Source: Blasia pusilla (taxonomy: Eukaryota). From it: 64,000 nt of DNA. Shown piece after piece: positions 1 to 46,925 of the stretch. The stretch is from contig CM114271.1 of the NCBI GenBank assembly GCA_050084515.1, forward strand, positions 27,714,001-27,778,000. The letters run 5' to 3'. The notes under the pieces were generated by a model. It did not search any database. It worked only from the letters and a program-made list of their open reading frames with translations, and was not told the origin of the DNA. The first letter of the stretch is position 1. Each line of letters starts with the position of its first letter. The position numbers and the translations under genes were made by a program.

Positions 1-74
1 TGATTAGTGAGGAGATACGCCTAGTCGGAAATAATAGCTCGCATAGTATGCAAGAGAATGCACTATTTGCAAGT

Positions 75-446
75 TGTCATGACCATACGGATTATGTCGT
101 AGAGTATAGTGTGCTAGTAGAGGCCATACCTTTTGTAGGGCCGTAGTGTCTAGGTAGAGATGCGGTTTCATACATAGGGTTGGGGGTTACTTAGTTGAGG
201 ATGACTTTTCCAATAGGGCCTACTCTTAGGTTGGAGGATATAGTGTGGAGTGCATTCAAAGAACAGTTAGTTCTTTGAGTTGAGCTTGTTGCGTTGGGAG
301 TTAGCCTTGGTAGTGAATAGAGCTCTTGGCTATGGTGGTTCCCGCAAGCTTCAACTTGGATTCTTCCATCATGGAGTGGGTTTGGATCGATTGTATGTGA
401 TTCTATACGTGTTTTATGACAGTAGGTCTTTCACGGATTTCACTCA
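75..446 (+). repeat. Element 1 repeat A1 (372 bp)
   Basis: Aligns without gaps to 7942-8313, about 20 mismatches by hand count. Confidence 0.95.
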
Positions 447-1705
447 AAGAAGTGGAGTAGATCGATGGTAGCTTCGATCGTGGATCAGTAGGATCTGGTT
501 AGGGCTGATTGTGTACTCAGCCGTGGATGTTTGTGGCTTGTGGCATATGTTGGAGGTGGGAATCTGGTGCGTGGTTGGCTTGGAAAGAAGCACCTTGCTG
601 AGAGTTTTCCAACGCGCTTTAGATCGCCGGATTTCGTCAAGGGAGTTGGAAGTTATCAAGGATTGAAGATTCTGGTTCGTGTTTGACGGTTTTTTGATGT
701 GGAGAGCTTGGAATGCGGAAGCTCTGTTAAAGTTCATCGAGATCGGGTGAGAGGTTCCTGTTGCTACGTGTGTTGTGATCTCATATGAAGCTATCTGCTT
801 GAGTGTGTGGAGCGTTGCGGATTTGTGTGTGCATGAATCTGGGCGGAAGCGCTGTCGGATTTGCGATTTTGGAGGTGTATGGACAACAAGTTTGTCTGAT
901 TTTTAGCTCGGAGTACAGGGCTCGGTTGTAGCTGATTTTTTGTGGAGAGATAGCTATGGTGGCCAATTGAATTAAATTTTGGTTGAGGATTTTTGGAGTA
1001 ATTGCTGATCGAAATTTCGTGGACTAGCTCAAGGTCTAGCTATGGTGGACAACACATTGGAGGGGCTGGTTGGTTGGTGATTCGTCCGTTGTTGGAGATG
1101 CCTATCTCGTTAGGGGCGCCCTGGTTGGGCCTCTCTCCATAGCAAAGCGTGGCATGTCTCGAGCATTTCTTGGCGTTTTGAGGCTTTGAGGCAACTCGAG
1201 GCAACTCATGGTAGCTCGGGGCGAGTGGGCGTGGGAGGTGGAGTAAGGAGCAAGGAGCAAGGAGCAAGCAAGCAAGCTTGCTGCTTGCTCCTTGCTTGGG
1301 TGCGAGTGCGACTAGCACGTCATCGACCAGCGGCGGAGTAGCTATTGCGTTAGAATTGTGTGGTGGGTTCTATGGATTCAGGGGGCGCCACGTTTGGTGG
1401 ATTGTGTTACCTTGATTTCCATTTGTGATTGGAGGGTTGTCGTTGGACTTCTTGTGTTTGGATCCCCTCCATCGTTGTTTCTTGCTTGCGCGCCCATTGT
1501 TAGAGTTGACGCTGATTTCCAGAGTAGTGTTACTCTTGTGTGCTACTGGTAGTGAGGTTGGAGTGATGACCAGTAGACCGTGGGAGGCTTCTTGTGGTGA
1601 TGACATGTTAGGTTACCTACACCCATAGCTAGTAGAGCTAGAATAGTACAGCGACATCGACGTCACTTGGTTACTTAGTGGTGGTGATTTGGTGGTGGTG
1701 CGGCA

Positions 1706-3290
1706 TTGGCGTTGGTCATCACGGAGCTGTCTGGTGGTCTGGTTGGGGACCGTGGTGCGGACAGTGGTGGTTTTACACAGAATGGATTGAGGTATCGGCT
1801 ACCTTTTCCACTTCCGACGGTTGATGAAGAGGAGGACGAGGGTATTTCAAACACCGAGTCTTCTACGTTTTTATCGAGTGTTACAGCTCCATTGATTTGG
1901 GACATGGATGGGATATATGGGGCCATGAAGGGCCCACGACGATACTCGGGTGCAGTGAGCACCATTGGGTCAGAGGACTTCATTCATGAGTTTGATACGT
2001 GGTGTGATATGCAAATGTTGCGGAACGCCACGTTGTTTACACCCTTCTTGGCTTGGAAGGGGTTATTTTAGCACTTGGAGGGACCACCCATGGATGATTA
2101 CCATGAGTTTAGGAAGGACCATGTTGCTGAGATTGAGGCGTGGAGACAATATTGGTCTCCAGGCTATGTGTCTATCACCCATGGTGGTATTGGTAGTAGT
2201 GCTCCTACTATGCCAGCCAGCCCGACGTTGAGTGGTACGAGTACAAGCCGGAGTGGGGGTACCAATGGAGGTACCCATGGAGGTACCAGTGAGGATACTA
2301 GTGGAGGTACTAGTGCCCCACCATCGTTCAGCCCGGTTGCAGAGTTCTTCAAGAGGTTGAAGAAGAACTATCAAGGAGTGAAGACAGAGAAGTTGAGGAG
2401 TTTCAGGAATTTGAGCGAAAGACTGGTGAGAGTCTTCGTGAGGCATACACTCGTATGCGACGCTTGATTTCAGTTACCCAAGGTGTGACTGAGGCTCAAG
2501 CAGTCTAGTTTTGGTATGGGATCTTGGACAGAGAGTTGCGCCGCAGGGTACGTAATGCTACTCTTATGAGTGATGATTCACCCACATTGACCCACGTGTT
2601 TGCTCTATCTGAGAAGAATGAGCTTAACATGGTGGAGGAGAGAGTGGTGACATCCGCATTCAATAAGGATACAACAACAACTTCTCGTGTTCAGTCAGTC
2701 CACCTCACAGTCTCGTAGTAATGGTGGTGGTAGTAGTAGTGGGAGTCGTGGGGGATACACACAACCTGAGTCAAGTCCTAGAGGGACACTTGCGCAGAGA
2801 CCATTGCCTTCATTTGCTGCCGCACAGCAAGGACAGTTAGGTTGGACATGTGGAGGTGATCATGTTAGGAGGTTTTGTCCCCAAGAGGATGGGAGACGGA
2901 CTTTGGAGGATGGGCCTCAGTCAGCCCCTACTCAGTATGATTATTGCGGGAGACCAGGTCATCCTCGAGAGCGTTGCTTTGATCTTCATCCAGAGTTGAG
3001 ATTAGGCCGCGGCCGTGGTGGAGTAGCTCCGAGAGGCCGAGGTGGTAGAGGTGGTAGAGGTGGACCAGTGGTTGGAGAGCCTATGGTGGCTACCCCTACC
3101 ACTACGAGAGAGTCAGCTATGGTTGCCAGGATTGAGCAGTTGGAGCAGAAGTTGCCTACTATGGCTGATATCCAACATAGAGCAGGTTTGGGAGTAGGGG
3201 TTTCCACCTCTTATGGAGGGGATGATCTCTCTTATATGGCAAGTGCAGCATACTTTGAGGCATCAGTTGCAGTTACGAGAGGAGCCACTC
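1706..3290 (+). pseudogene. gag: Element 1 gag (stops and frameshifts)
   Basis: RRYSGAVSTIGSEDFIHEFDTWCD block is shared with elements 2 and 3. Two zinc-knuckle remnants (TCGGDHVRRFC, YCGRPGHPRERC) and an RGG-rich tract follow. Confidence 0.85.
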
Positions 3291-3339
3291 GAGCGTCCAG
3301 TTGGGTTATCCCCTTTGGATACTACACCCATTGTATGGC

Positions 3340-4300
3340 AGTATCCGCCGGAGGGCATTTGTGTGTTTGATCTCTTTGGTGGGATTAGCATTGGTTTGGC
3401 TGCAGTGTTGCAGGCCGGTCTTCTTGTGCGGAGATATGTGTATGTGGAGCGAGATGAGACGGCCTAGAGAGTCTCATCTCGACATATCGGTCAGTTGATG
3501 CGGAGATATCCTGAGTTGTGGCCGCCATCAGCTATTCGTGGGTACCAACGTGCTTTGCCGTCACACATTGCATTGTTGGGGACGTAGGAACTTGAGAGGG
3601 TTGGTCTTGTGGATTTGGTGATTGCTGGATGGCTATGTCAGGGTCATATACGTGCTAGTCGTGGTGAGGGATTACACGACCCTAGGTCTCGATTGTTTTG
3701 GGATATGTTACAGGTGTTACGACATCTTCAAGTTCATCAGACACGTGCTCCAGCTTATATTCTGGAGAATGTTCCATTGTTGGGTGACACTCGGGCCCGG
3801 ATGATGGCGAGTGTTCATGAGGTGAGGTCTTGGATTGGACCATCGGTGTTGTTGGATGCAGCGCGAGTTGGCTCACGTGCACATCGTCCACGCTTGTGGT
3901 GGACAAACTTGTTGCCTAGGGAGGTTCTACGTCGAGCATATGATGCAGTGCAGCGGGATCCTTGCCTTATAGTGGATAGTATCTTGGATACTGGGCGACT
4001 TTCTCAAATGGCGAGGGTTATTGATTGGTCACCCATGGCAGTGGTGAACCGTGTGGGCCAGCCTAGGATGGCACTACCCACATTTGTGAGTTTTCCCTTG
4101 TCACATGCCTACAGGGAAGGTGGTTCCGGGCTTATATGGGATTCTCATGTGTGATAGTTGGTGGAGCCTTATGCTGATGAGAGAGAGCGTGCGATGGGAT
4201 TTGCTACTAGTGTGACAGCGGTTGCTTCCATTTCTGAGGCTTCACGATGTCATGTGTTGGGTCAGGCCATAGACCTGAATTGTTTGACATGGATTTTGTC
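3340..4300 (+). pseudogene. C5 cytosine DNA methyltransferase domain (DNMT3-like) inside pol of element 1
   Basis: One reading frame, interrupted only by stops. Motif I DLFGGISIG, II VERDE, IV DLVIAGWLCQG (PC mutated to LC), VI YILENV, VIII AHRPRLWWTNL, IX ERERAMGF, X VLGQAID. Confidence 0.92.
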
Positions 4301-4693
4301 TCGGATTTTGAGTCTTGGGATGGCCGAGCAATGTCAACTTTGGACTATGTCTATGGGTCTTCTACCCCTTGTGATGAGCTTGATGGCTACCGGGACGATA
4401 GAGACATCGGCTGGGGGCGAGGAGAGTAGTATTTTGCATCCTTGGAGTAAATGGGATGTAATGGCTGGGCATGTGGAGTTGGTTGCTCATGCTGGTGGAG
4501 GAGTTATTTGCTCACATGATGGTGTAGCTGAGGGTGTACCATCTTGTGAGGGGGTTGCCTAGCAGCCAATGGTGTTGTCCTCCCCCTCTAGTGTGCCAGT
4601 GGAGGAGACTTGGGATCCATTACTTGGGCCCAAGCTTAGGGGAGGTGAGAAACGACGTTTGACACAATTCCTACGTGCTTATAGGAGTTTAGC

Positions 4694-6030
4694 ATGAAGG
4701 AGTTGGGTGGTTTGGTTGGACCCGGTATACGGATTGGTTTGGCTAGTGATTCGCCAATCTTCCGTCTTCCCTACCGATATAGTGATATGGAGAGGGACTT
4801 GATTCAGAGTAGGACGTTGGACCTTTTGGAGGCTGGATTACTGGAGTTGTCGCATGGAGAGTATGCATCAGCCAATGTATTGCGTGCTAAAAAAGATGTG
4901 CATGGCAACTACACGGATAGGCGGATGTGTGGAGATTATCGTCATATCAATCGGCAGACCAAGGCTGATAGGTATGCCATGCCTACACTTGAGGAGATCT
5001 TTGATGTGATGGGACACGCAAAGATTTTCAGTACTTTAGATCTTCGGGCAAGATACCATCAGTTGCCAATTCGAGAGAGTGAAAAGGCCAAGACAACATT
5101 TTGGGGTGTCAACTCTCATGGCAAGGATTGTTTGTACCAGTGGAAATTCTTACCCTTTGGGTTGAAGAATGCACCTGCCGAGTTTCAGAGAGTGATGGGA
5201 CGGGATCCTAGGGGTTGGATTTTGTTCGGTGTTACATTGATGATATCTTGGTGTTCAGTAACACGGTGGAGGAGCATCAGATACATTTGCAGATTGTGTT
5301 TAAGCGGTTGAAAGCTCATGGTCTACGTTTGCATCCAGGAAAGTGTAAGTTCTTCCATGAGGATGTTGAGTACTTGGGTCATGTGATCTATCTAGGTGGT
5401 TTGGGAGTTCAACAAGCAAAGGTGGAGGCTATTACACTTATTCCTTGTCCGATAGATGTGAGTAGAGTTCTGGCATTCATGGGATTGGCGAACTACTATC
5501 GGAGGTATGTGAAGGAATTTAGTGCTATGGCAAAGCCTTTGAACCAATTGCTGAAATCATATCAGGAGTGGCACTGCGGAGATGATCAGGAGAGAGCTTT
5601 TATAGAGCTCAAGGCCCAGTTGGTGACGGCGCCTATCTTGAGGAGACCTATCTGAGGGCGCCCGTTTCAGTTACACACTAATTGGAGTAGGTTGGGACTT
5701 AGAGCGGTGTTGACACAACATGATGATGAGCATATGGAGTTTGTGGTGGCGTATGCAAGTCGTTCGAATAATGCAGCGGAGTCGCACTATAGTTCATATG
5801 AGGGAGAGTACTTGGTAGTAGTGTTGGCTGTGGCACACTTTAGGTGTTACTTGCTTGGCACACAATTTACCCTTGTTACTGATCACCAGCCGCTCAAGTG
5901 GTTGATGGAGTCTGACAAGCTTACAGGGAAGCTTGCACGGTGGGCTCTTATCTTATAGGAGTATGACTTCCAGATGGTACATAGACCTGGAGTTGCCAAC
6001 CTTGATGCTGATGGGTTGAGTAGGAACCCA
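4694..6030 (+). pseudogene. pol: Element 1 reverse transcriptase and RNase H
   Basis: RRMCGDYRHIN, FSTLDL, LPFGLKNAPAEFQR, CYIDDILVFS, KCKF, YASRS, TDHQPLKWL, KLARWAL. Gypsy-type order RT-RH-IN. Confidence 0.97.
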
Positions 6031-6345
6031 TGTACTAGCCAAGAGGATGCAACTAGGGCTAGATGGCATGACGAGGTTGATGAGGAGATGATGCCAGGTT
6101 AGCATGCATCCGCCTTTTTATGTTGGTTAGGGGTGGACTCTAGTATGGAGGACCACATGACATCTTACTCTACTTAGAGGGTAGATGGCTAGCCTTTAGA
6201 TCTTAAGGTTGGAGATGGTGGTACGGATCAGCGTGATATTCATGATGATGCGTTGGTGTTGGAGTTCCTACGGACCAGTAGGGTGCTAGACATAGTGAGT
6301 GCCAAGGAGCGAGACCGTGTTCTTCTACGTGCTAAGAGGTATTGA

Positions 6346-7667
6346 TTGGAGGGAACACATATTCTCCGTGTGTGGGAGGATGGTAGAGTACGAGTAGTGC
6401 CGCATTTGGCTCAGAGAGAGCGCATTGTGCGACATGCCCATGAGGAGTTGGGACATTTTGGGGTAAAGCGTACGTATAGCCTACTCCTTGGTCAGTATTG
6501 GTGGCGTGGCATGCATACTCAAGTGCAACAGTTGGTGTCACGTTGTATGGTTTGTGACTAGGTGAGGGCATCATTCAATGCCCCTACACCACAGTTACAC
6601 CCCTTGCCTATTATGGGGTTGGGTTACCGTTGGAGTGTGGACTTTGCGGGAGCGTTACCATTGACTGTACGACATCATCGATACGTCTTGATGATGGTGG
6701 AGCACTTCTCCAAGTGGATTGAGTTGGTGGCATTACCTGACAAGGCAAGTATGGGAACGGGGGATGCGTTTCTTGATAGAGTGCTTAGTCATTTTGGTGC
6801 ACCAGCTGAAGTGCTGACCGACTAGGGTACAGAGTTTCAGGGTGAGTTTCAGGTCTTGTGTGACAAGGCGTTGATTGATCATCAGACTACGTCTCGAGAT
6901 CATCCAAAGGCGGATGGTTTGGCTGAGCATGTGGTTCAGACGGTGAAGAGGGCATTGCGCAAGTATGGCCTACAGAAGGGGCATCTTGGAGACTGGGATA
7001 TTCAGTTGCCATGGGGTATAGATTCAGTCGCCAAGCGTCCTTGGCTTCCTTCTCACCTTATTTTTTGTTATACGGCCGAGATCCAGACTTGCCAGCAACA
7101 ATTCTTCGGGAGTCTAGTGAGGTGGTGAACCTTGATGACCTAGAGATGTGGATGAGAGTGTGTTCTCAACGGGTAGAGCTCTTTCGGAGAGTTATGCCAA
7201 CAGCCTTTGAGAATCTTGCCATTGCTCAACACAGGGATACGTTGCGGTATGCAACCATTTGGGGTGGAGGTTATGGACCATCAATTTGTAGGTTCCATGT
7301 GGGGGACTATGTCTATTTGCAGCAGATTGCACCGACAACGTTGGATGTGACGGGAGGCCGCACTATTTTACGAGTACGCGAGGTGTTAGCTTCTGGAGCT
7401 CTAATGTTGGAGGGTCGTGATGGAGTTGTTTGGAAGGACCATGTGCGTAATTGTGCGCCATGTCATCTTCCAAATGTGGATGGAATTGTTGACCCAAGCT
7501 TAGCCATGATACGTGCTAGCTTGAGGTGCATGTTGTGTGGGTCAACTGGTAACGCAGCCCGTATGTTGGTGTGTGATCGGTGTTCTAGGGGTTGGCACAT
7601 GATGTGTTTGACTCCACGTATGGATGTTGTTCCTACTGGAAGGTGGTTTTGTCCTCGATGTACTTAG
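6346..7667 (+). pseudogene. Element 1 DDE integrase with C-terminal PHD finger
   Basis: HEELGH...CMVCD zinc finger; SVDFAG, TD*G and GLAE catalytic core; SPYFLLYG; terminal C4HC3 motif CMLC...CDRC...WHMMC...WFCPRC then stop. Confidence 0.95.
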
Positions 7668-7820
7668 TAGATGCTTGATCTTTGCATGATATGGATTACA
7701 AATGTGCGACTAACGATGGGGCAACCTAGCACTCGGCCTTCTGATTCGTGCACCCACAAATGTGTATAGCATGTAGTAGATGTATAGGGCTACCTGGGAG
7801 TTAGAGGGACCTAAGCGCCA

Positions 7821-7832
7821 CTTAGGGGAGCG
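7821..7832 (+). promoter_or_regulatory. Putative polypurine tract directly before repeat B1
   Basis: CTTAGGGGAGCG abuts B1. Element 3 has CTAGGGGGGCG at the equivalent position. Confidence 0.7.
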
Positions 7833-8419
7833 AGTTGTGGTACACTTGTGTTTGTGGATACTCTCGTGTATGTTATGTATGTATGTGAGTATGGTATGTC
7901 AGCGATGTATGTTGTATGACGATGTGGATTCGCACGACAGTTGTCATGACCATACGGATTATGTGGTAGAGTATAGTGTGCTAGTAGAGGCCATACCTTA
8001 TGTAGGCCCGTAGTGTCTAGGTAGAGATGCACTTTCATACATAGGGTTGGGGGTTACTCAGTTGAGGGTGACTTTTCCAGTAGGGCTCGCTCTTAGGTTG
8101 GAGGATATAATGTGGAGTGCACTCAAAGAACAGTTAGTTCTTTGAGTTGAGCCTGTTGCGTTGGGAGTTAGCCTTGGTAGTGAGTAGAGCTCTTGGCTAT
8201 GGTGGTTCCCGCAAGCTTCAACCTGGATTCTCCCATCGTGGAGTGGGTTTGGCTCGATTGTATGTGATTCTATACGTGTTTTATGATAGTAGGTCTTTCA
8301 CGGATTTCACTCAGTTGTGGTACACTTGTGTTTGTGGATGCTCTCGTCTATGTTATTTATGTATGTGAGTATGATATGTCAGCGATGTATGTTGTATGAC
8401 GATGTGGATTCGCACGACA
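7833..8419 (+). repeat. Element 1 3' repeat block: B1 (7833-7939), gt, A2 (7942-8313), B2 (8313-8419)
   Basis: B1 and B2 are both 107 bp and nearly identical. A2 matches A1. Junction reads CACGACA-GT-TGTCATG. Confidence 0.95.
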
Positions 8420-8423
8420 AAGT

Positions 8424-9829: not shown

Positions 9830-10880
9830 TTACTAGTAAGTTTTTGCCCATGGAATGCATTCAACCGGATCCATGGAAATGAAAATATTTCACAAATGGA
9901 GCATCTAATGAAATCATTACATTAGACACATGTTCAAATTTTAGATTTGAAAAATAAATAATAAAGAGAAGTTTTCGTTTAAATATATGAATAATCATAA
10001 GATTATAATTTTCATTAAAACAATGCTTATTTCCCCTTATTAGTTTAGAGAGAAATCAATTAGCTTATTTTTCCAGCCCCCATCTCTCAATAAAAAAAAA
10101 AGAATCACTTAGTTTGATCCAAAGTTTGTCTCAAAAATTTCTTTAAAAATCCCTCATAAGTAGAGCTTGAAAATTAAATTAAATTATATATTTATGAAAT
10201 AATATGTTTTTTCCTTCCAAAATCAGTTTGAAATTAAAAGTTTTAGTTTTTTTTTTTAATGTTAAAGTAATAATTTTGATTTTAAAATTGAAAAAGAAAT
10301 TTATTATGAAAAGAATCACAATTTTTTCACGAAGATTCAATTTAAAAAAATAAAATTTTAAACAAAAATTAAGATAATTATTAAAACCTCTTTCCTATTC
10401 AAATTTTAGCTCAGTATAAACAAAATCTAAAAACATTGAAAAGCTTAAGGGCGTTAGTCGAGGCTAACAACCTTAATAATGTGATGACTAATAAGATGCT
10501 GATGCGCTGCATGGGAAATAAAAAGATGTTTGAAGAACTCTAGCCAGAGTGAAGGGATTAATGATGTTGAAAACAAATTCAAATATTTTTCTTGTTACAT
10601 GAGGTGTAATAAGAAGGTACTCTCCAATAGTAATGTACTAATAAGATGCGCATGGGATGCACGTAAATAAAAAAATGTTTGAAGAGCTTTTGTAAGTGTT
10701 TAGCCCATGGGAAGGGATCCATGATGCTCACACAAATTCAATTTTTTTTCTTGTTACTCGTAAGATGTGAAACATTTTCTTGCTGCCTAGTTATCACATG
10801 TCAAATGGAGACGTATTTACAAAAAGAAAGCACACTCCCATCATTCACAATATACTAGCGGGCAGCCCATGCCCACTAGT
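9830..10880. repeat. AT-rich Helitron-like repeat
   Basis: Minus-strand hairpin plus CTAGT end at about 9832-9877. Shares blocks with 38610-40200 (ATGGAAATGAAAATATTTCACAAATG; GATCCAAAGTTTGTCTCAAAA). Hairpin with CTAGT at about 10855-10880. Confidence 0.55.
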
Positions 10881-17389: not shown

Positions 17390-20300
17390 ATATAACACTG
17401 TACTCCCCACAAACATATTGTACGACTCAACTGGTGTCGTAATCGCACGTGTGCGCATCATAGCACTATCCGTCGCATGCTCTGGCTGGACTTTGCGACT
17501 ATCTCTTGTCGAGTCATATACTGCGTGGGTGACATGCCCCCAATCGAGGTCTGTATCTAGAAGGGGCAAGACTCAATGTCGGCTTTCCGTAAGCCCAACG
17601 CTAAACACACCGCCTTCCCTAACATCAAGGGTTGCGCTCCCGAATCAAGTAGGACGCGCTGCGGGTGGTATACTGTCTTTGTCAAACTAACCAAGCGAAA
17701 TACTCCAGCTTGGTTATCCAGTAACACTACTCCAGGTGTCACCACTGCTCACTCGATGGTCGGTTAAGTTGGCATATCTACCAACTTCACCGCCGTTGCA
17801 TGCCATGACTTTGTGGGGGACGTTCCGAGCACTGGCTCTGAGGGCAAGTCCACCACCTCCTCAACTACCTCTGAACAAGAAGTAGTCACCTCTCCACGCT
17901 CACACAACGTGGCGGCCAGCCGGAACACCTCAACTGGTCCAACTCACAACGTCGCCAACTCTATGGTGGAAAATAACAGAGTCTAGCTCACTCTAGTGGC
18001 CACCCCAACACTATGGTCGACATTGACTCCACTAGAGCCGACATAGGAGTTATCACTCCAACTCCTATGACGTGACGTCGACGTACCTACCTGACTTGTA
18101 GGCACCGCTGGTCGTCGAGGCACCATCGATGGTGTGTGTAGTGCCTCCGACAATGTGAATGATTGTGGAACCCTGGCCTACGGCCCATCGATCCCCTCCG
18201 GTGGGTCAATCTCAACTCCACCTCTTGGATGGCTCATTGCCTCTCGCATCACCCCGAGTCACCACTGTAGCAGCCTCAACCTGAGTTGCACTACACACAA
18301 ACCCCATACTAGCGAGATCCTCACCAGGGTTAGGGTAAGAGGTAGAAGCTAGAGCTACACTAGCAGCTCGTGGCTCCGTGCCTTCCTTGAGCTGCATCAT
18401 CGTCATGGTAGCAATCCTCTGCTCCAACTGATCGGTGCGTGAGAGAAGTGTCGGCTCTGGTGCTCCTGCTCCATCTCCTCTAGCTAGTGGTGGTCCTCTA
18501 CCACCACGTCCACGAAGAACTCCCTGACCTCCTCCAAGACGACCGTCCCCAGGCCCTTGGCCTACCTCTAGACGTGCCTCTTGACGAAGGTCAAAACATC
18601 TATCCCTAGTATGACCATATCTATGGCAATAGACACAGTGGTAATGTGGTGGGGCCAGCCTATATGGCTCCTAAGCAATCGGAGGCGCTCGTGGTCCTCT
18701 CCCATGCTGTGTGCACTCTCTCTGCCTATGGGCCCCTCCACACGTCCAACAAGACAACATCGGTCTCTGTTGGGCAACATATGTAGGTACGGGTCGTTGC
18801 CTCATAGGCTCACGGTACCCGGCCTGCTCTCTAGGCACACAGGCATGCTCCCGTGGTACTGATGCTCGCTATGGCACCTGTGGGATCATCGTCGCTCGTG
18901 GACCCGTCAACTCTTGAGAAAATCCAGAGGTCACTACTTGCTCCTCACTCATGCTGAGCTTAATACGCTCAGACAACTCAAAGACCACCTTCAATGTGGG
19001 CTTCGCTGTGTGAATCAGCACCGCATCTCGGACTCTCCTGCGTAGTTCTCGGTCCAGAACCCCGTACTAATACAGGACTGACTACGCCTAAGTCATTCCA
19101 TACGTAGCAATGATCAACCTCCTCATGCGCGTGAATGCCTCTCTCAAACTCTCACCCGATCGTCGCTGAAAATCATGTAGACTCTTCTGCTTGTCGATGC
19201 GTACGCCCTGGTAGCTCTTCCCCAAGTGTCGGAAGAACTCCAATGTGGGACTGAAGCTGGGTGGCCCTCTACCAATAGAGGTCTCTGCCACATCGCTAGT
19301 CTCACTGCCCTCCTCTCCATCTAGTCTCCGGGATGATGGTCTGGGTCTCTCTCCTCTCACGATCCCATCATATGCCTTGCGACCACTAGTGGACACATAT
19401 CGTGGAGCCCAATACATCCTCCATGCATGGATCTCCACTAAATATAGTGATCAAAACTCCATGAAGTCATCCATCGGAGGATCCTCCAAGTGCTGGAACA
19501 ACCCCTTCCATGCCATGAAAGGGTTGAATCGTATCGGGGTCCGTATCTCTTGGAAGTCACACCACGTGTCGAACTCCTGGATAAAATCATCTAAGTTCAT
19601 GGTGCCCACTGCACCCAAGAAACGATGCATGCCCTGATGGCCCATGTCGTCCATCTCTTGCCAAGTGACATTGCATCCGTCTGTGATCTCGTCACCAGAC
19701 CCAGTGTCTACTGATGAGGATCCAGCCACGGATAGATGTTGAGGTAGGTCCTCACTCGTAACCCCTTGGTATCTCACTCCACTCCGTGTCACACCACTAC
19801 TACTGCTCGCACTACCCCGTTCTTCCGAACCCTGGAAGAACGCTGTGATGACAACCCTGTCTCACCCGCTCAAGCACTCAGACTCACCGAGAGTCTCCCA
19901 CACTCCTCACTAGCTTACCTATGCTAACATCAATCCCGTGATGACACACCCAACCTCACACACACTCAACACTCAGGCTCACCATGCGCCTCCCACTAAC
20001 TCACCTAATCTACCGACACGCTCGGGTCATACATACGACCCCTACTCGAAAACCGCCGTTTATCCACCAACATGCTACACATGATAAGAGTCTACACTCA
20101 TCACCATCACTGCACCCACCTAGCACCAACTACTACTCGATATCCAGCACTCTCAATCACAAAAGAGTGCGAGAAAAGGGACTCGAATGGGTAACCTGAT
20201 CACGCCTACCAACCTACCGCACAGTCAGCATCCACTTCTCCATGTGATATGACAACCTCCGCAACACGACACTCTCCTCGACCAACACGTCGAACCTCTC

Positions 20301-22533: not shown

Positions 22534-22599
22534 TTCCTTTAAGGATTAGAGATTAGACCAAAGAATTAAAGTGGGTCCCTTCCCTTTGTATAACTCTTA

Positions 22600-23122
22600 G
22601 GACTCCGTTTTGTTCTTCGATCCAATTAATCGGGTTCCCTAGCTTTGTTTTGATCTTTGGTTCAATCCGCCTCTTCCCTTTGATCTTTCTTTTATTCTTT
22701 GGTTCAATGGAACCCATCCCTTAGGACTTTGTTAATTCTTGTGTCAAATCGACCCCTTCCCTTGGGACTCCGCTTAATTCTTTGGTCTAATCGGACTCTT
22801 CCCTATGGCCTCGTCACAATTATAAGGTCTAGTTATTCGGCCCCTTCCCTTCTGTCTCTCTTCAATGCTTCGGTTCAAGGGCCCCCTTCTCTTCGGACTC
22901 GACTTTCTTCTTTTAACCCCTTCACTTTAAAGTCTCCTTAATTCTTCAATCCAATTGAACCCTTCTAGTTGGACTCTTCTTTGTTCTTTGGTCCAATTGG
23001 CCCTTGCCTTAAAACTCTACCTAATTCTTTGGTCTAGTCAGTCATCCCCGTTGGACCGTGCTTAAATCTTCGTTCCAATCGATTGGCTTTGACTGCGCTT
23101 AATTATTCAGTCGAATCGGCCC
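22600..23122. repeat. Degenerate pyrimidine-rich tandem repeat (about 40-43 bp unit)
   Basis: Recurring GGACTC...TTAATTCTTTGGTC(C/T)AATCGG-like units. Confidence 0.6.
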
Positions 23123-27484: not shown

Positions 27485-27864
27485 ACTAGTCTAATTAGTG
27501 CCCGCGTGATGGAACGTGTCACGCGTGTATTTAAACGCTTAGGAACACGTGTCGTCTCCCGCAGGAGTCGCCATATAGAGTCATAGATGGAACCCTCCGC
27601 AAATTATAGTATAGATAAACCTACAAGTTAGATAGATAGAAATGAAAATATTTCACATCTATCTAGCTTACCAAACACATAACATAATAATACATACAAT
27701 GTTAGTAGTTTAATTAGTGCCCGCGTGATAGAACGTATCATAGATGTGCACTCCTTGTGTGCGTATACTCCTCTTATGAATACACCTTATGAATGTGCGT
27801 ACACACCTCTCTTGAGCCCTGCCCCGTATTTAAACGCTTAGGAACACGTGTCGTGTTCCGGAGG
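27485..27864 (-). repeat. Tandem Helitron-like 3' termini; target site of element 3
   Basis: Minus strand reads CGCGTGA...TCACGCG hairpin then GGCACTAATTAGA-CTAGT at about 27485-27527, with a second copy at about 27703. 27525-27657 duplicates the joined flanks of element 3. Confidence 0.65.
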
Positions 27865-28772
27865 AGTCGTGCGGATACACATCGTTACACAACATACATC
27901 GCTGTCATCGAACACATGCTCACTCATGGCATCCAAACAACGAGACAAGAAGTACCAAAATATCTCCAATAAATCAAGATCCAATCTCTCTCAACACTAT
28001 AGCTCTCAAATGTATGCACTCTCACATAATCCTCTGTATGTCAAACCAAACCCACTCTCCTAATGAGAGGCTTGGATTACACACACAAGGCAAACAAGAC
28101 CATAGCTCCGTCGCCTCATGCCAAGAGGTTCAACAAAGAGAGAATGACCTCTCAAGCTCTCTCTCCTTGAGGTATACCCCTCCCTTCTCCCAAGCTCCCT
28201 CCATGATAACCTATGCTCCCAAGTCACCTCCTTGGCTCTTGACCTGATGTAGAAGGTCAAGGGACTCTTACCAAAAATATAGAGTTAGCCATATACTCAA
28301 AATGGTACTTACCTAAAATAGTAAGTTTCTCAATATGGCTCCAAATGAGCCGAAACGAACGGAAACCTGCTCTCTCAGGTTTCCCAGGGCCTCTACAGGT
28401 CATTCTCAACCTCATAAGGCTATCCTCCACTACTCGCAAAGGCGCTCTACTAGATCTCACCGATCTATCCTAAAAGATGTGACAACTGTCGTGCACATAC
28501 ACATCGCTGTCACGGAATACACACACAAACACGCACGATCACATGCTCACTCATGGCATCCAAAAAATGAGATAAGAAGTACCAAAATATCTCCAATCGC
28601 CCCCCTAGTTGGTGGTTAGGTCCCTCTAACTCCAGATAGCCATCCATACCTACCATGACATACATCTCTCGGACGCTAAGAGCAAGAAGGCCGGGTGCTC
28701 ATGTGGCCCCATCATTAGTCGCCTTCTTGTCATTCTTGTCATAAACACAAGTCGGAATGTAGAAGTACCTAC

Positions 28773-30780
28773 TTTATGTACATCTGGGACACATCCATCA
28801 TCCCTGAGGAACCCTAGTAAGAGGTGGCGTCAAACATGCCACATGCCATCCTCTCGAACATGCATCATAGACTAGCATATTGGCTGCACCACGAGCAAAA
28901 CCACACAACATACATCGCAAGCGTGCACGAACCATTGCTAAGCTCGGATCAACTGTACCATCAATGTTCGAAAGATGACACGGCGCACAGTTATGCACAT
29001 GGTCCTTCCAAACCACACTATCATGTCCCTCCAATAAGAGAACACCAGATGGCAAAACCTCACGCACTCTCAAGATGGTGCGCCCTGTAGTCACATCCAA
29101 CGTTGTGAGTGGGGTTTGCTGCAAGTAGACATAGTCTCTTTGATGAAACCTCCGGGTAGTGGGTTGATAACCAGCCCCGAATAGTCGCATACCTCAATGT
29201 ATCCCGATGCTGCGCAATCGCGCCAAGTTCTCAAACGCCATGGGCATCACTCTCCAAAACAACTCAACCCTCTCTGAACATGCTCTCATCCATACATCAG
29301 GGTCATCAAGGTTCAACACCTCACCAAAATCTCAATGAACGGCCACACGTAAATCTGGCTCACGGCCATAAAGCAGCACGTACGGTGAGAAAGACGCTAA
29401 GAATGTCTACCTGCTGAATCTGTATCCCATCGCCAACCACGACAAATGAAGGTCCCAATAAATGCAAGAACATACCATTCCATGCTGTAAATGGGTTGAG
29501 CTCTCTAGAGTTCCTGACCCGCGGGGAGTCGCACCAACTCCTGAACTCTGATATGAAATCGTGCAACTCAATCGTGCTTACTGCACCTGAAAACCTACGC
29601 GGTCCTCTATCCCGGTCGTCCATCTCGTATGCCCAACTGGTAGGACCACTCACAATGTGTGGCGATGTCACACAAGGAGGTCGAGGTGGTCCCTCATATG
29701 GAGATCCTCGGAACCTCGCACCATTCCGCGTAAAACCTCTAGAGCTACTCTCGGGTTCACCACCTCGCCTCTCAAAGTCCCGAACGGATGCGGTGATGAC
29801 CCTCGTGCCCCTCTCACCCAATCACTCTCAACCTCACGAGTAATCCCTCAATCACTCATCCCAAACACGCGGCACTCGATCTACACTCTCCCTCCCCGAG
29901 ACGTGTAACGTGCGGCAACACGCGGCGTCGGGCAAATCGACCAAACTATCATCTCATCGACAACTTACCCTTATCTCCGAACATCCCACACAGGTCTATG
30001 TCCCCTAAACCCACACATCATCGATGCTCCTAGCATCAATAGAAAACCCAATATCCCAAATAACTACCCAATATTTAGGTTACCTCTTTGCAAGCCATAC
30101 TTGTGTAATCCTCTATTCACCGTCTGCACAACCCTCTCTGCTAGTCCATCCGCCTCAGGATGATCTCACGAAGTGATGCGGTTGACAATCAGTGCTTGAT
30201 CATACAAGGCCTGAAACTCCCCGCAAACTCTGTACCCTGGTCTGTCAACACCTCAGTTGGTGCCCCGTAATGACTCAACACTCGATCTAGGAAGGCATAC
30301 GCTACTCCCTCACTCGCTGTGTCAGGTAATGCAACCAACTCTATCCACTTCGAGAAGTGCTCGACCATCACCAACACATAACGACTATGGCGCTCTGTCA
30401 AAAGCAAAGGTCTTGCAAAATCCAAACTCCATCTATAACCTTAACCCATGATCGAAAGTGGATGCAACTGTGGAGTCGGAGCATTGAACGATGCTTGGAC
30501 TCGATCACACGACATGCATGTGGGAACAAAGTGCTGAATGTTAGTCTGCATACCTCGCCACCAATATTGAATCTGGAGCAAGGTGTAAGTCCGCTTCACT
30601 CCAAAATGACCCAACTCCTCATGAGCATGACGCACCAAACGTGCTCTTTGCGAAGGATGAGGCACTACACGCACTCTACCATCCTCCCACACTAGCAACA
30701 CATGTGTCCTCTCCCATTGAAACCATCTGGCTCGTTGTAGGATCCGATCCTGCTCTCTAGCACCCATTGTGCTCACGACG
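28773..30780 (-). pseudogene. Element 3 integrase with PHD finger, interrupted by an insertion
   Basis: HAHEELGHFGVKRTY, DFARPL, TDQGTEF, and LRCMLCG...DACSRGWHVACLTPPL...*WMCPRC. Confidence 0.92.
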
Positions 30781-30989
30781 CTGCCTGTACGCAGTTACTC
30801 CAAGACCACTCCATCGACGTGAATGTCTTGATCATGTGTCATCTCCTCACCGGCTTCTGGATCTAAGGACTCTCCATCACACCTCGCCATTAAAGTCTCA
30901 GCAATTTGGCTCTCCATAGCCAACAATCCAAATAGGCTGACGCATGCCATCCTGGCATCAACTCCTCATCACTCTTACCATGCCAACGA

Positions 30990-32340
30990 GCTCTAGTCGC
31001 ATCTCGTTGACTCGGGCATGGATTACGGCTCAAACCATCTGCATCCTGGTTGAGCATCCCATGTCTATGCACCACCTAGAAGTCATACACCTGCAACAAA
31101 AGAGCCTACCTCGCAAGCTTCCTTATAAGCTTGTCGGACTCCATCAACCACTTAAGTGGCTGATGATCAGTAATGATGGTAAAGGGATTTCCGAATAGAT
31201 AACATCTGAAATGTGCGACAACCCACACTGTAGCCAAGCACTCACCCTCATACGAGCTATACTTTGCCTTTGTAGGGTTGTTGGGTTGTAAGCCACCACA
31301 AACTCTCTACCATCATCGTCATGCTAGGTGAGCACGGCTCCAAGCCCCAACATGCTCTAATCGGTATGCAAATGGAAAGGACGCCCCCTGATTGATCTCC
31401 TCAATATGGGCATGGACGTCAATCTTTCCTTGAGCATCTAAAATGCTCTCTCCTGCTCATCCCGCCAATGCCACTCCTGATCCACCTTGGTTAGCAAGGT
31501 CATCGGCTTCGCAATTGAGCTGAAACTCTTGACGTACCGTCGATAGAAGTTCGCCAATCCTATGAATGCACAAACTCGACTCACATCTGTAGGGCATGAA
31601 ATCTTGAAATAGCCTCTACCTTTGTCTGCTGCACACCAAGGCCCCCGGGTATATTGTATGACCCAAGTACTCAATCTTGTTGTAAAAGAACTTGCATTTG
31701 CCTGGATGTTGCTTCAACCCATGTAACTGCAATCATCGAAACACCTCCTCGAGATGTCGCCCATGCTCCTCAACCGTGGCGCTAAAGACTACGATGTCAT
31801 CAATATAACATCTAGCAAAATCCAGACGTGCCAAGATCCTATCGGCGACCCTCTCAAACTCAGCCAAAGCGTTCTTTAACCCGACTGGAAAGAAACGCCA
31901 CTGGTACAAACAATCCTTCCCGTGAGGATCGATGTCCCAAAATACTGTCTTCTGCCTGTCCTCCAATCAAATAGGGAGCTGATGTTATTTGGCTCACAAA
32001 TCCAATGAACTGAAGACCTTTGCATGCCCAATTGCATCAAAGATCTCCTCAGGGATAGGCATGGCATATCAGACTTCGTCGATCGATTGATAGGTCGGTA
32101 ATCTCCATACATCCGCCTATCCGTCCAGTTGCCATGCACATCCTTCTTGGCAGGCATGACAGTGGCATATGCATACTCCCCATGCGTCATCTCCACTAGT
32201 CCTGCTCTGACCAAGTCTTGGCTCCTACTCTCAATCTGAGCCCTCTCCAAGTCAGTGTACCTATAGGGTCATGAGAAGATTGGCGTGTCGCTCGACAACT
32301 GAATGTGGATTCCTAGACCCTTCAACATACCCAAATCATG
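30990..32340 (-). pseudogene. pol: Element 3 reverse transcriptase and RNase H
   Basis: DRRMYGDYRPIN, PVGLKNALAEF, CYIDDIVVFS, FIGLANFYRRYV, ADGLSR. Confidence 0.95.
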
Positions 32341-32799
32341 CATGCTAAATGCAAAACAGTTCCTATAAGTCCTAAGGAATTGGTGTATTTGATGCTGCTC
32401 TCCTCCTGTCAACTTAGGGCCCATATCTGGCTCCCAAGTCTCCATCGTGACTATAGTAGGACTCTCCGACGCGGGTGTTGGTGGTTGCTATGGTGCAACC
32501 CCGTCTCGGACAACAAAACTCGACTACTCCCCTACAGCCAGCTTTAAAATCGGATCTCCATTTGTAGTACCCGCAACCACGCTCGATGCTGTGGCTACTA
32601 TCTCCTGGCGTACCTACAAAACATGCCAAGAAGTCCAAGGTTGTCTCTCCCAATCACCCTTGGTGTGTCGATCTCCTCCGGTCTCGCCCCCAGCCACTGC
32701 CTCAACCGTCTCGGTAGGCATGGGGCTCACCAACGCAACTATTGTGATCTGTCGCATCCTCAAACGATACTGCTCAGCTAGTCCTAAGATGAAAATCCT

Positions 32800-33540
32800 T
32801 GTCAAGTAGTTGAGGTCCATCGCCTTACCCAAGACATGACGTTGTGATGCCTCTGATAGTGACGGTGCTATCGTCACTCCTGTGGGGAATCCCATCGCTC
32901 GCTCTCGCTCATCGGCGTTGGGCTCCACCAACCTCTATACCTTGTCATCCCAAACCAAGCCACGTCCGGCCTCCTTGAATACATAGGAAGCGGGAAAACT
33001 CACCAATGTGGAAAAGGTTGCCCGTGGCATGCCAATCTTTTTTACCACAGTCAACTACGGTCGATCATCGTGCCTCATTGCCTGTAATCGACGACCCAAA
33101 TCCAATATAGAATCCACCAACAAATTGGAGGGGCGCTCCACTCTCGCATATGCCCTCCGCATCACCTCATGTGGTACCAAGTTGGTCCACCAAAGACGTA
33201 GGCAATGTGCTTGCCAATCCACACTCGCCGCATCCAACAAAACTGTCGGGCCGATCCATGCGCACACCTGATGTGCACTCGTTACCACACGAGACCTCGA
33301 GAAATACAAGATCGTTACATTCTCCATAATGTATGCTGGAGGACGAGACTGATGCTCCTGCAAGTGTCGTAAGATCCGCATAATCTCCCAAAAAACCTCG
33401 ACCAAGAGTCAGCTAATCCGCTATCTCGTCTAGCACTCGACTCACCCTCAATGGCCAACCTGCAATGACCAAGTCTATGGTCCCTACCCGCTCCAAGTCT
33501 TGCGCCCCCAACAATAAAATGTCCCTCGGTAGGGAACTCT
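32800..33540 (-). pseudogene. Element 3 DNMT domain (motifs I-II deleted)
   Basis: DLVIAGWP, YIMENV, AHCLRLWWTNL, EPNADERERAMGFP, VLGKAMD. Collinear with the element 1 domain. Confidence 0.9.
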
Positions 33541-33949
33541 AGTGATGTCCAAAGGGGTCATAGCAGCACTCCTGCCTACCTGGGGTTCCTCCGATCCGTC
33601 ACACTCTGGTGCAAACGTCTCGCTCCACGCGGTCTGCACATGCTCAATGGCTCAACGTCGAAGCTCCTCAGTCGAGCCCCAAAGAAGCACCTCTCCTCTA
33701 TAGATTGATATGGCTACCATGACACTCCTCTCCATAGAAATTCCAAGAACTGGAGTACCCTCTGCATGGACATGTTCCTCAATAAAATCATGAGGCCACG
33801 TGATGACACTACTAAATGCTGCTAAGGTCGCCATCTCTCCTGGCCGTCGCTCGATCACTGCACATGTGAATCGAACGGGTAATGAGCTAAGGCGCCCATC
33901 ACTTGAGTGGCATCATGGTCTGTAGGACACTGACTCCTCCCCCACTAAT

Positions 33950-36330
33950 CCAGGGAAAACCCATTCGGGTATAACACTGCTCCACCAACCAAGACGTCGT
34001 AGGACTCTGCATCAGTCACTATCGCCTTGGCTCGCACCACGGACTCATCTGTAAGATGTCCCGAGAGAATCCTCACCATGACCTCATGTCGGGTGATATA
34101 CTTGTGTAGTACTCGCTCCACCTAAGGATGTTTGTATCCGGAATGCACAACGCTCCACATCGGCTCACGTCAAGCCCAATCATCTGAAAGATGCTTTCCC
34201 CAACATCAGGGGTTGCACTCCTTAATCCAACAAGACGCGATGTGGACTAAAAGCTCTACCTCCGGGACCCACCAACTAGAAGACCTCTCCCTGATTATCT
34301 AGCAATACAACACAAGGAGAAGCCATGGCACACTCTATCGCGGGTCTAGCAGGCATCTCCGTTATCCTAGAAGCCACAGCCTGCCATGAATCTTCCGTGG
34401 ATGGCCCGAGCTTCTGCTCCAAGGGCAGATCCATCACCTCCTCTACGATCACCTCTGAACCTGATGGAGGGACTCCAACTCCATGCTCACATAGCGTAGT
34501 GGCCAGCCGGAACATCTCGGCGGGCGTACCTCCCAATGTCATAACATTGGAAGCAAAAAATAGCGGAGCACAAAACACCATTGTGGCCACCCCCAACATC
34601 GTACTCGACACATGCTCCTCTTGAGCATCAGCAATAGGAGTCATCGCACTTGTTTCTCCCATTTTCCTCCGTACCTGCACACCAATAACATCACCAACTC
34701 TCCGAGAACTCTGATCAGGACCCAGACAATGTGTAAGACTCAAGAAGCCTGGTCTCTTTCTTGGCTTCCCCTCGCTGTGGATCCAACTCTGCGGCTCCTC
34801 CATCTGGGCAACCCCGCACATCCAACCAGGATCCTCCATATCTGTGGCTGCTCCATATGATGTTGATGCCACAAATCTGGCCTTGGGTAACCTCAATACC
34901 ATAGCGGCAATCTGCTCATGTAGTTGTTGTATGTGAGCAGCCATCCCAGCCTCACACCTGACGTCTCCCTCAACGCATCTAGGTGGTGGGACTCTATCTC
35001 CTCCACGAGTAGCTCCACCACCCTGTCAGGCAACTCCAGCTCCTCGTCCCCCAACGGAACCAGTTGGTGCAAGATCTCTAGCCGACCCGGACCGGCTACT
35101 CGCCCTGGTGTCCTCTCTGGCCCTCAGTCCGGACGTAACTCAACATGTAAACTGAAACACCTGGCATGTCTGTGACCATACCTCTAACAATAGTCACACT
35201 AATAACCTCCTCGTGCAACACCATCTTCTCCTCCATGTTGAGGAACACGTCCATCACCTTGACGAGTGCAATCACGTTGGTGATGGGCTCCACCACATGA
35301 CCAACAAGTAATCGTAGGTGGCTGCTGCTGAGCGGCATATGAAGGCGTAGGTCTTTGCGTCCGGTATCCTCCCTGAGATTGTTGTGCCACAGTCGACCTA
35401 TCTTGGAGTCCACGTTGGTGGCTCAATGTTCTTGGCAGTCCTAAAAACATCTCTCAACGTAGGGGAGGTGTTCATAAGAAACATCCCCTCCCGTACCCGT
35501 GTCCACACATCTTCTACTATGACTGGATAGCCTGAGCCTCTGTCATCCCCTGAGTGACGTTGATCAACCGGCGCAAGCGAGTGTAAGCCTCATGAAAACT
35601 CTCACCCGAGCGCCTCTAGAAGTCGTGGATGCTCCGTAACTTCTTTGTCTGTACCCCCTGATAGCTCACCCTCAACTCAGCGAAGAACTCAACCATGGGG
35701 TTGAACTTGGAACAAACTCGACTAGATGGTGCAACTGCTCTAGTGCAAGTGACCCCTCCTAAAACACCACTAGTGGAAGAGGAAGTAGCTCTCTTGACTC
35801 CTCTTCCTCATCTGGGAATGGCTTCGTCCACGACACATAGTGTGGGTTATAGTAGAGTCGCCATGCCTCAATCTCTTGGGCATATCTGTGGGAGAACTCG
35901 TGGTAATTGTCCATGGGCGTTCCCTAATGATGGAATATACCGTTCCATGGTGTAAACGGGTTGAACTCTTTAGAGTTCCTAGCCCGCTGTGAGTCACACC
36001 AACTCCTGAACTCCGCAATGAAGTCGTGTAGCTCTATAGTGCCTATAGCACCTGAAAACCTATGCCGTCCTCTACCCTTGTCGTTCATCTCATACGCCCA
36101 ACTGGTAGAACCACTCGATGTGTACGGTGGATCACTAACACACTCCTCTACTTGCTCCCCCTCGTCTGAAGACGACACAGAAGGAGATCAAGGTGGTCTC
36201 TCACGTGGAGACCCTTGAAACCTTGCACCTCTCCGGGTAAACCCTCCAAAGCTACTCTCAGGTCCACTACCTCGCCTCTCAAAATCCCGAAAGGATGCCG
36301 TGATGGCCCTTGTGCCCCTCTCACACAATC
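33950..36330 (-). pseudogene. gag: Element 3 gag and aspartic protease
   Basis: RFSGAIGTIELHDFIAEFRSWCD, knuckle CWSCGGAHHQRDC, and protease VLLD*GVQPLMLGK at about 34200-34240. Confidence 0.85.
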
Positions 36331-46245: not shown

Positions 46246-46339
46246 CTAACAAGGCATGTATAGATCATTGTACAACTTCTTGAAATTATCCAAAGGTTTG
46301 GTTGAGATAGTGACATCTCCAAAATGTCCTCTCTACAAT

Positions 46340-46925
46340 GCATTTCCTCGACATCAATTTTCACCATATTCTTTGCTCTATGGGAGAGAACCACATCTAC
46401 CATCAACTACTTATCTTGATATATTTGAGATACTTAACCTTGATGACTTGGAGATATGTACAAGAGCTTGCTTTCAATGAACAAAGCTATTTTGGAGAGT
46501 TATGCCAATGATGTTTAAGAACTTGTCTATTGCTTACCATTGCAATATATTGAGGTATGCAAACATTTGGTGAAATGGTTATCAACAAGACATTAGGAGG
46601 TTTCATTGGACATGGCAATTACATGCATCATTATTCGTGTGTAAGAGATGATGCCTTCATAGGTCCTCATTTTGGAGGGTTGTTATATTACTGGTTGTAA
46701 AGGCCGTTTGCATAAAGGTGTATGATGTCATGATTCAATCATTGATGGGAATGTTTACCCAAGCTTGGCAATGCTTCCTATAGGTGTACCATGCATACTG
46801 AGTGGGTCTATTAGGGAAGTAACTAGTATATGATTGATATTCAAGAAGATAACATATTTTGTGTTCGGAATGATATTTTGAGTGCATTTCTTTAGAACAT
46901 TAGTTTTGTTTCCTATGTACATAGG
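46340..46925 (+). pseudogene. Ancient relic of the same integrase-PHD C-terminus
   Basis: FSPYSLLYGREPHLP...LNLDDLE...RVMP aligns with element 1 7050-7667 and ends in CCTATGTACATAG (compare CPRCT*). Confidence 0.75.

Follow-up and report, generated by a model that had tools for sequence, protein, structure and literature searches.

The window, a 64,000-nucleotide stretch of the Blasia pusilla genome (GenBank assembly GCA_050084515.1, contig CM114271.1, positions 27,714,001 to 27,778,000), contains two Ty3/Gypsy-type retroelements, elements 1 and 3, that encode a DDE integrase but have split direct repeats of the kind seen in DIRS-order elements. Repeat A lies at the 5' end, whereas the 3' end carries repeat B, a 2-nt spacer (NN), a second A and a second B, giving the order A1-internal-B1-NN-A2-B2. 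Because the same layout is seen in 36 of 80 independent metagenome loci, and A-to-B joints occur in contigs from DNA runs of the same species, it is not an assembly error; it is a feature of the lineage and not a one-off arrangement, as had been expected in an earlier reading of the DNA from its letters alone (the original prediction). The integrated form is probably a circular permutation of an ordinary long terminal repeat (LTR) cDNA, and the sequences suggest that an integrase cutting inside the repeat rather than at its ends may yield this layout.

Element 1 was delimited by a direct-repeat search, self-BLAST and base-by-base reading of the boundaries, which agree with the predicted A...B-gt-A-B order, TGTC/GACA outer ends and 4-bp target-site duplication (TSD) AAGT. 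Its features, in window coordinates, are as follows:

71-74, + strand: left copy of the TSD, AAGT, matching 8420-8423
75-8419, + strand: element 1, in the order A1, internal region, purine tract, B1, GT, A2, B2
75-446, + strand: A1, 372 bp, opening with the integrase end TGTCATG and having a U5-like end
at about 237, + strand: TATA-like GATATAG inside A1
269-280, + strand: predicted transcript start and self-primer AGTTCTTTGAGT inside A1
442-451, + strand: putative self-priming primer-binding site (PBS) ACTCAAAGAA, spanning the end of A1; relatives carry CACTCAAAGAAC
1688-3367, + strand: gag-like region with stops and frameshifts, similar to the gag of element 3
3198-4559, + strand: DNMT3-like C5 cytosine methyltransferase region (PF00145, E 1.2e-4), decayed
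4685-6099, + strand: reverse transcriptase (RT) and RNase H (RVT_1, RT_RNaseH, RT_RNaseH_2), with a frameshift and in-frame stops
6193-7664, + strand: integrase, with the H2C2 zinc domain at 6346-6558 and the rve core at 6562-6822
about 7527-7661, + strand: C-terminal PHD finger of the integrase (Pfam)
7824-7832, + strand: purine tract AGGGGAG(CG), directly 5' of B1
7833-7939, + strand: B1, 107 bp, terminating in the integrase end CACGACA
7940-7941, + strand: 2-nt spacer GT, separating the abutted integrase ends
7942-8314, + strand: A2; B1, spacer and A2 make up the sole complete B-NN-A repeat
8315-8419, + strand: B2, ending with CACGACA at 8419
8420-8423, + strand: right copy of the TSD, AAGT

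TGTCATG starts A at 75 and 7942, CACGACA closes B at 7939 and 8419, and a single base, the A at 7833/8314, is ambiguous between the two repeats. A1 (72/75-446) and A2 (7939/7942-8313) are 94.7% identical over 375 nt; B1 (7833-7939) and B2 (8313-8419) are 96.3% identical over 107 nt. The abutted-end pattern CRACANNTGTCA has three matches in the window, a number reached in 0 of 100 shuffles; two of them are the junctions of elements 1 and 3, and the remaining one (39679) is apparently a chance match. Numerous stops and several changes of frame interrupt the body of element 1, which is a defunct member of a bryophyte Ty3/Gypsy lineage. The gag-like region of this decayed copy gave no Pfam match, and its methylase region, 46% identical to that of the near-intact relative L016, has LCQ in place of the catalytic PCQ motif. 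The coding strand shows a GC skew of +0.23 to +0.33 and an excess of T over A, both at window positions 1-8000 and in the other element bodies.

Element 3 is collinear with element 1 at 65-70% DNA identity and, by comparison with it, encodes the methylase, RT, RNase H and integrase-PHD. It was predicted to combine the same layout, GT spacer and a 4-bp TSD with a dissimilar A, and this is what was found: its A is 512-515 bp long and has no sequence relationship to the A of element 1. The features of element 3 are as follows:

27865-38537, − strand: element 3, with the same repeat order as element 1
38541-38538 and 27864-27861, − strand: TSD CCTC
38537-38026, − strand: A1
from 38025 downward, − strand: putative self-priming site
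28597-28487, − strand: B1
28486-28485, − strand: GT spacer
28484-27970, − strand: A2, 87.7% identical to A1
27970-27865, − strand: B2, with final base T instead of A

Relatives were collected by scanning metagenome contigs with an integrase-PHD alignment, in which 481 of 600 matched stretches encode members of the lineage. The A and B repeats of element 1, element 3 and locus L034 were mapped on all 80 loci, the remainder was covered by a motif scan, and repeat order, spacer and TSD were tabulated, a comparison that the original prediction had proposed. The 36 loci with B1-NN-A2, followed by B2 where the contig continues (31 distinct after merging of five flank-sharing pairs), represent at least three subfamilies. 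Another 30 loci (27 distinct) are repeat-less, with a single B followed by an unrelated flank, and 14 are uninformative or unclassified. The left terminus is A1 in all 14 copies whose 5' end lies inside the contig; copies with two complete AB LTRs, which in a majority would have refuted the original prediction by its own terms, did not appear, as a full A+B repeat is found at none of these 14 visible 5' ends. Both ends could be classified in 13 copies: eight have the form A-internal-B-NN-A-B (elements 1 and 3, L007, L033, L034, L036, L074, and L077), five have the form A-internal-B (L001, L003, L049, L055, and L070), and the mirror form, A-B-NN-A-internal-B, is represented by none of the 13. 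The expected 4-bp TSDs are perfect in eight of the 12 copies with both ends readable (AAGT, CCTC, ATGT, CCTT, AATG, ACTA, CCAA, and GTAT), match at three of four positions in two (L036 and L003) and are absent in two (L033 and L070); perfect duplications surround three repeat-less copies.

The gene set of the lineage comprises gag, protease, a DNMT3-like methylase, RT, RNase H, DDE integrase and a PHD finger; in element 1, the Pfam order is DNA_methylase, RVT_1, RT_RNaseH, Integrase_H2C2, rve and the C-terminal PHD finger. The methylase, the PHD finger and the repeat-less copies had all been overlooked in the original prediction. In L016, two long frames (spanning 976-8226) are separated by one stop. 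The first encodes gag, an Asp protease (a weak match, E 2e-4, below the cut-off) and DNA_methylase, and the second encodes RVT_1, RNase H, H2C2, rve and PHD. The best solved-structure match of the L016 pol is Ty3 Gag-Pol (7q5b, E 4e-98). PF00145 is located at residues 940-1086, upstream of the RT, and this methylase finds its best solved matches in DNMT3A/3B/3C (E about 2e-7), where the FxGxG, PCQ and ENV motifs align. All 11 near-full-length copies checked, which come from two subfamilies and include element 1, have the protease, methylase, RT, RNase H, integrase and PHD finger, except that the protease was undetected in decayed element 1. A methylase match was obtained in 27 of 81 sources; the remaining sources are cut upstream. 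Among the matches listed, the integrase-PHD piece of element 1 shares 84-85% identity with proteins named from Marchantia polymorpha, and further relatives are named from Calypogeia fissa and Sphagnum fallax. Judging by these names, the lineage spans liverworts and mosses, in keeping with a liverwort host.

A search for a tyrosine recombinase (PF00589/Phage_integrase) gave no match at E<=0.01 in the two long, near-intact L016 frames or in 20 frame pieces of element 1 from both strands, and the predicted combination of a Gypsy DDE integrase (H2C2 plus rve) with no recombinase holds at the Pfam level. L016 has the Ty3/Gypsy pol order of protease, RT, RNase H and integrase, and element 1 has the same order in pieces; the rve and H2C2 domains go together with short, 4-bp duplications, and a PBS beside U5 is paired with a polypurine tract (PPT) beside U3. 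Every Ty3/Gypsy character tested is present except two complete identical terminal LTRs, the provirus being either A...B-NN-A-B or A...B. With the DIRS order, these elements share the split direct repeats A1...B1A2B2 but neither the tyrosine recombinase (in the Pfam-level search of L016 and element 1) nor insertion without duplication. Because no recombinase was found and duplications are present, they are not DIRS-order elements.

The priming signals indicate which part of the provirus would correspond to an LTR. A G-rich purine run abuts B1 in every copy in which the boundary was read and, in the scanned relatives, is located a short distance 5' of it, and the 10-20 nt after A1 are complementary to a stretch of A. 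The pairing partners are TCTAGAAAAACT and AGTTTTTCTAGA in the L family, ACTCAAAGAAC and GTTCTTTGAGT in the element-1 family, and CAAAGAGAGGATGAG and CTCATTCTCCCTTTG in element 3, so that pairing is retained across three subfamilies although the sequences differ. The partner in A is found ∼23-35 nt downstream of the TATA-like box, where the transcription start is expected, and a tRNA-type PBS (TGG...) downstream of A1 was seen in none of the copies read. As a control, 500 24-mers were taken from the same element for each copy. In element 1, 12-nt complementarity to A positions 195-206 is reached by 0 of the 500, and the complementarity observed is likewise reached by no control in 9 of 14 copies in all, as compared with 1/500 in L003, 3/500 in L049 and 16/500 in L001. 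The arrangement matches that of Tf1-type self-priming. Because the purine tract precedes B1 and the self-priming site follows A1, B-NN-A would be the LTR at the cDNA stage. The original description of split repeats "instead of paired LTRs" is misleading in this respect: the priming signals imply an ordinary LTR, B-NN-A, in the cDNA, which is present whole only once in the provirus.

Sense RNA reads with 90-99% identity cover the element; they continue across the purine tract, B1 and the spacer, enter A2 and end where the element ends. The species of the window therefore transcribes the family, and does so in the expected form. Apparent starts of RNA molecules at 8103 and 8295, upstream of or away from the predicted start, may reflect clipping of diverged reads and were not used. 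The same reads show a 997-nt skip with 8 inserted letters (6197-7195; 16 and 29 reads), most likely from an expressed deletion derivative, and a 97-nt skip over the purine tract and the start of B (7784-7882). In a few reads, A is joined backward onto itself, from position about 318 to position about 30 (8259->104). Between the reads and the window copy, transitions in both directions are the most frequent differences (A>G at 115-145 places, G>A at 44-191, T>C at 95-131 and C>T at 32-145, depending on the run), a pattern compatible with family divergence mainly by transitions; these counts do not reveal in which direction element 1 has decayed.

The two junctions on either side of A2 behave differently. 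From ...CGACA of B1 to TGTCA... of A2, the gap measures exactly 2 nt at each of the 37 readable junctions (32 distinct), including the two in the window. The letters are GC in 13, AC in 8, GT in 6, AT in 4 and AA in 1; the GT spacer reported as common to elements 1 and 3 is indeed shared by them but is not fixed in the lineage, in which only the length is constant. When the spacer is GC, the junction reads GACAGCTGTC, a perfect 10-bp palindrome with CHG sites on both strands of its center, CAGCTG. All non-GC spacers except AA are single or double transitions from GC, the flanking variants GATA and TATC are also transitions at these cytosines, and this variation would fit later C-to-T decay at CHG sites. 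The idea of a variable spacer made anew in each cycle was dropped, given that the variants other than AA are such transitions within CAGCTG. Since the most intact copy, L016, has a B-GT-A junction, the sequence of the spacer is free and its length fixed.

The A2|B2 junction, unlike the B1-A2 junction, differs between independent copies. The L family has a blunt CAAT|ATACATG in about nine rows and CAAT|ACATG (2 nt shorter, with AT microhomology) in five distinct loci, along with variants that have 1 or 3 added bases, a short deletion (L035/L036) or an A truncated at position 76 (L052/L053). In the element-1 family, no base is added in L009 and L011, GA is added in L013 and a 19-nt filler is present in L005, whereas element 1 itself retains CTC(A), the first bases of its own PBS. 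Among the joints listed from DNA-run contigs of the species of the window, there are five A-to-B variants, one with 8 nt of filler. Splicing as the origin of the A|B junction was rejected by eye, there being no GT..AG at the boundaries. A tree of 20 B1-NN-A2 sequences is star-like, with 10 of 17 inner branches open, and neither label is clustered on it: spacers require 10 changes (8.95 when shuffled) and junction types 9 (9.65 when shuffled). The identities of A1/A2 (84-95%) and B1/B2 (88-96%) indicate about equal divergence, and both pairs are therefore remade in each cycle.

These observations can be accommodated in the following model of circular permutation. Genomic RNA would extend from A1 to A2, and its self-primed, two-jump reverse transcription would produce [B-NN-A]-PBS-internal-PPT-[B-NN-A], in which the U3 of each LTR begins with B, A supplies the TATA box and R, and the last bases of A close U5. 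TGTCATG... and ...CACGACA, the integrase-type ends, sit abutted inside the B-NN-A unit, and the 4-bp duplications flank whole units. The integrase would be expected to cut after CA on both strands at the abutted-end site and not at the cDNA tips; such nicks would split the duplex and give each new end a recessed CA-3'OH and a 2-nt 5' overhang, which is the normal substrate for strand transfer. Use of the sites in both the left and the right LTR would generate an A-internal-B insert without repeats and unable to replicate further; lacking the 3' R, it would be dead on arrival. If, instead, the cDNA tips (the U5 end and the U3 start) were joined first and only the 5' LTR site were opened, the product would be A-internal-B-NN-A|B, the sole form that could be copied again. 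The tips could be connected by host end joining or when the plus strand, the last to finish, makes an end-to-end template jump. A model of this kind would account for four observations, namely the fixed spacer, the variable A|B joint with PBS bases or filler, the similar divergence of A and B, and the abundance of repeat-less copies.

Several points weigh against this model. No cDNA intermediate was seen, and the steps that follow reverse transcription are all inferred. Two of the 14 copies show only a weak self-priming signal, element 3 (57/500 controls by the ungapped measure) and the decayed L055 (332/500), although by duplex energy the priming duplex of element 3 (-18.5 kcal/mol) is matched by about 3% of the controls. 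The star-like tree of 20 copies could not show inheritance of junction types. Retroviral integrases normally require CA near a DNA end. Repeat-less copies could stem from a later B1xB2 deletion or, in part, from short-read assembly; their decayed state argues against collapsed assembly and is compatible with deletion. The A2|B2 junction that is 2 nt shorter could be the result of later slippage in ATAT. Finally, if a simple 2-LTR circle were opened at either site, the mirror and observed forms should be equally frequent, but the mirror form was seen in 0 of 13 copies (8 split-repeat and 5 repeat-less). Hypothetical ways out of this deficit are that the plus-strand end-to-end template jump would add B only at the right end, that the integrase might be loaded on the 5' LTR only, or that mirror copies might quickly collapse by recombination between the two close A repeats, feeding the A-internal-B class.

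A more specific proposal can be offered only tentatively: that a whole streptophyte DDE-integrase LTR lineage relocated its integrase ends into the LTR, where they abut as a near-palindrome around a 2-bp spacer, so that a copy able to replicate again would need its cDNA tips joined (circle-like or end-jumped) before opening by the integrase, while plain linear cDNA would yield dead repeat-less insertions, about half of the copies. If true, this would be a eukaryotic retroelement that uses the long-discarded "circle junction as att site" route, and it would provide a link in mechanism to DIRS, PAT and Ngaro elements with their split repeats.

Of the alternatives to circular permutation, the one that survives best, improbable as it is, assumes replication like that of DIRS, PAT and Ngaro elements with the enzyme swapped. 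RNA would run from inside A1 to inside B2, B1-NN-A2 would act as a template or splint that restores the ends, and the DDE integrase would insert the full-length DNA. The A-coding-B-A-B layout is identical to that of PAT, Ngaro and SymbioDIRS, as far as it is described in the text of PMC5890265, and a splint would be consistent with the B-NN-A length being kept in all 37 junctions. However, the purine tract at B1 and the self-priming site at A1 are canonical LTR-type signals, needless for a splint, the Pfam searches of L016 and element 1 found no recombinase, and a transcribed A2|B2 should be inherited, yet this joint varies among independent copies and contains PBS bases or filler. It is very unlikely that A-internal-B is the basic element and A...B-NN-A-B a composite of a full unit with an adjacent, internally deleted A|B unit. 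The A-internal-B form, with 4-bp duplications of its own, is as common as the split-repeat form (27 versus 31 distinct loci), but in the latter the duplication flanks the whole A1...B2 and the B1-A2 gap is 2 nt rather than 4; further, an A-internal-B element, having no 3' copy of R or poly(A) region, would not support the first strand transfer, and it is the B-GT-A junction that the most intact copy, L016, carries. That the ordinary LTR is A+B, which does begin with TG and end with CA like a normal LTR, and that the 5' LTR lost its B while B was duplicated before the 3' LTR, or that an assembly or rearrangement artifact is responsible, is hardly credible for a layout that recurs in two diverged copies in the window and in the 36 metagenome loci, across at least three subfamilies, with A+B at 0 of 14 visible 5' ends.

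A host repeat flanks element 3, and an uninterrupted paralogous copy of it, at about 27657-27530, is continuous across the insertion point, which is about as near to an empty site for element 3 as one window allows. Copies of one host repeat family are found in or beside both split-repeat elements (27563-27657, 38539-38634, and 9868-9922; also 10066-10446 versus 39724-40147). Within element 3, a segment of ∼610-650 bp is present twice in direct orientation (29468-30076 and 35933-36582; 76% alike), one copy being its own gag N-terminal region and the other interrupting the integrase; element 1 has no counterpart of the interrupting segment (6969-7008). More remnants, related to the lineage of elements 1 and 3 and located at 18233-19807 (− strand) and 45378-46809 (+ strand), comprise a gag-like piece with 34-40% identity to the element 1 gag and an integrase piece with 36-56%; no recognizable A or B repeats were found nearby. 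Three tandem regions (22577-23117, 47612-47770, and 49882-50107) include an array of ∼12 units of roughly 41 bp, two 79-bp units (97%) and two ∼113-bp units (87%).

The original prediction knew of no Gypsy lineage with split repeats, but one has been described. In KnitGypsy-Dnmt3 from Klebsormidium nitens, Gypsy domains occur together with DIRS-like repeats (de Mendoza et al. 2018, PMC5890265, Fig. 4c legend); this was the only prior description that the literature searches found. As stated there, it has a Gypsy-type polyprotein, a Dnmt3-related methylase inside it and A-coding-B-A-B repeats. The bryophyte elements share all three features and are, by the published description, of the same kind, now in bryophytes; the host of KnitGypsy-Dnmt3 is a charophyte alga and not a liverwort or moss. 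The main text of PMC5890265 is silent on a PHD finger (with 0 occurrences of "PHD"), duplications, the spacer, priming sites and repeat-less copies. Proteins named from Klebsormidium are absent from the 45 methylase-region matches and from the best 120 of 342 integrase matches. If the bryophyte elements are related to KnitGypsy-Dnmt3, that would weaken the reading, given in the text of PMC5890265, of an acquisition "in the K. nitens lineage." New with respect to the 2018 report are the purine tract at B1, the Tf1-like self-priming site at A1, the abutted integrase ends inside the LTR, the variable A2|B2 joint and the repeat-less copies, which make up about half of the total; the mechanism proposed here is also new, and it is testable.

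Until now, the pairing of DIRS-like split repeats with a DDE integrase was no more than a comment in a single figure legend on one alga (PMC5890265); relatives named from Marchantia, Calypogeia and Sphagnum show it to be widespread in liverworts and mosses. These sequences offer a concrete model for how an integrase could produce split repeats, and they bear on the origin of DIRS-type layouts and on joined-end cDNA as a productive integration intermediate. In practice, standard LTR finders will mis-delimit the split-repeat copies and overlook the repeat-less ones altogether. With a DNMT3-like methylase and a PHD finger of its own, the lineage is relevant to the interplay between transposons and host chromatin.

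Among other known systems, DIRS-order elements (PAT, Ngaro, TOC1, and SymbioDIRS-Dnmt3) have the same A1-internal-B1-A2-B2 structure, and some carry a methyltransferase; they encode a tyrosine recombinase, have no DDE integrase and are not expected to make duplications, whereas the elements described here have an rve integrase, 4-bp duplications and no Phage_integrase match in L016 and element 1. Self-priming in plants has been predicted by Neumann et al. (PMC6317226) for the Tcn1 clade, which is present in mosses. In Tf1/Sushi and Tcn1, self-priming Ty3/Gypsy elements with normal paired LTRs and a chromodomain, the PBS is complementary to the 5' end of their own RNA, as it appears to be here, a likeness of arrangement. 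The integrase of the retrovirus PFV cleaves the palindromic LTR-LTR junction of 2-LTR circles (PMC1180852). In such a junction, as in the B-NN-A unit under the proposed model, abutted CA...TG ends form a near-palindrome that is cut internally by the integrase to give processed ends; the retroviral junction forms only after circularization, as a side route, whereas here the site is found in every LTR, with a 2-nt spacer, and appears to be obligatory. HIV-1 integrase is likewise said to cleave the palindromic LTR-LTR junction of 2-LTR circles. In the circle junctions of bacterial IS3/IS30-type elements, abutted inverted ends 2-3 bp apart are the substrate of a DDE enzyme; these are DNA transposons without reverse transcription, and the parallel with the bryophyte elements is one of analogy only.

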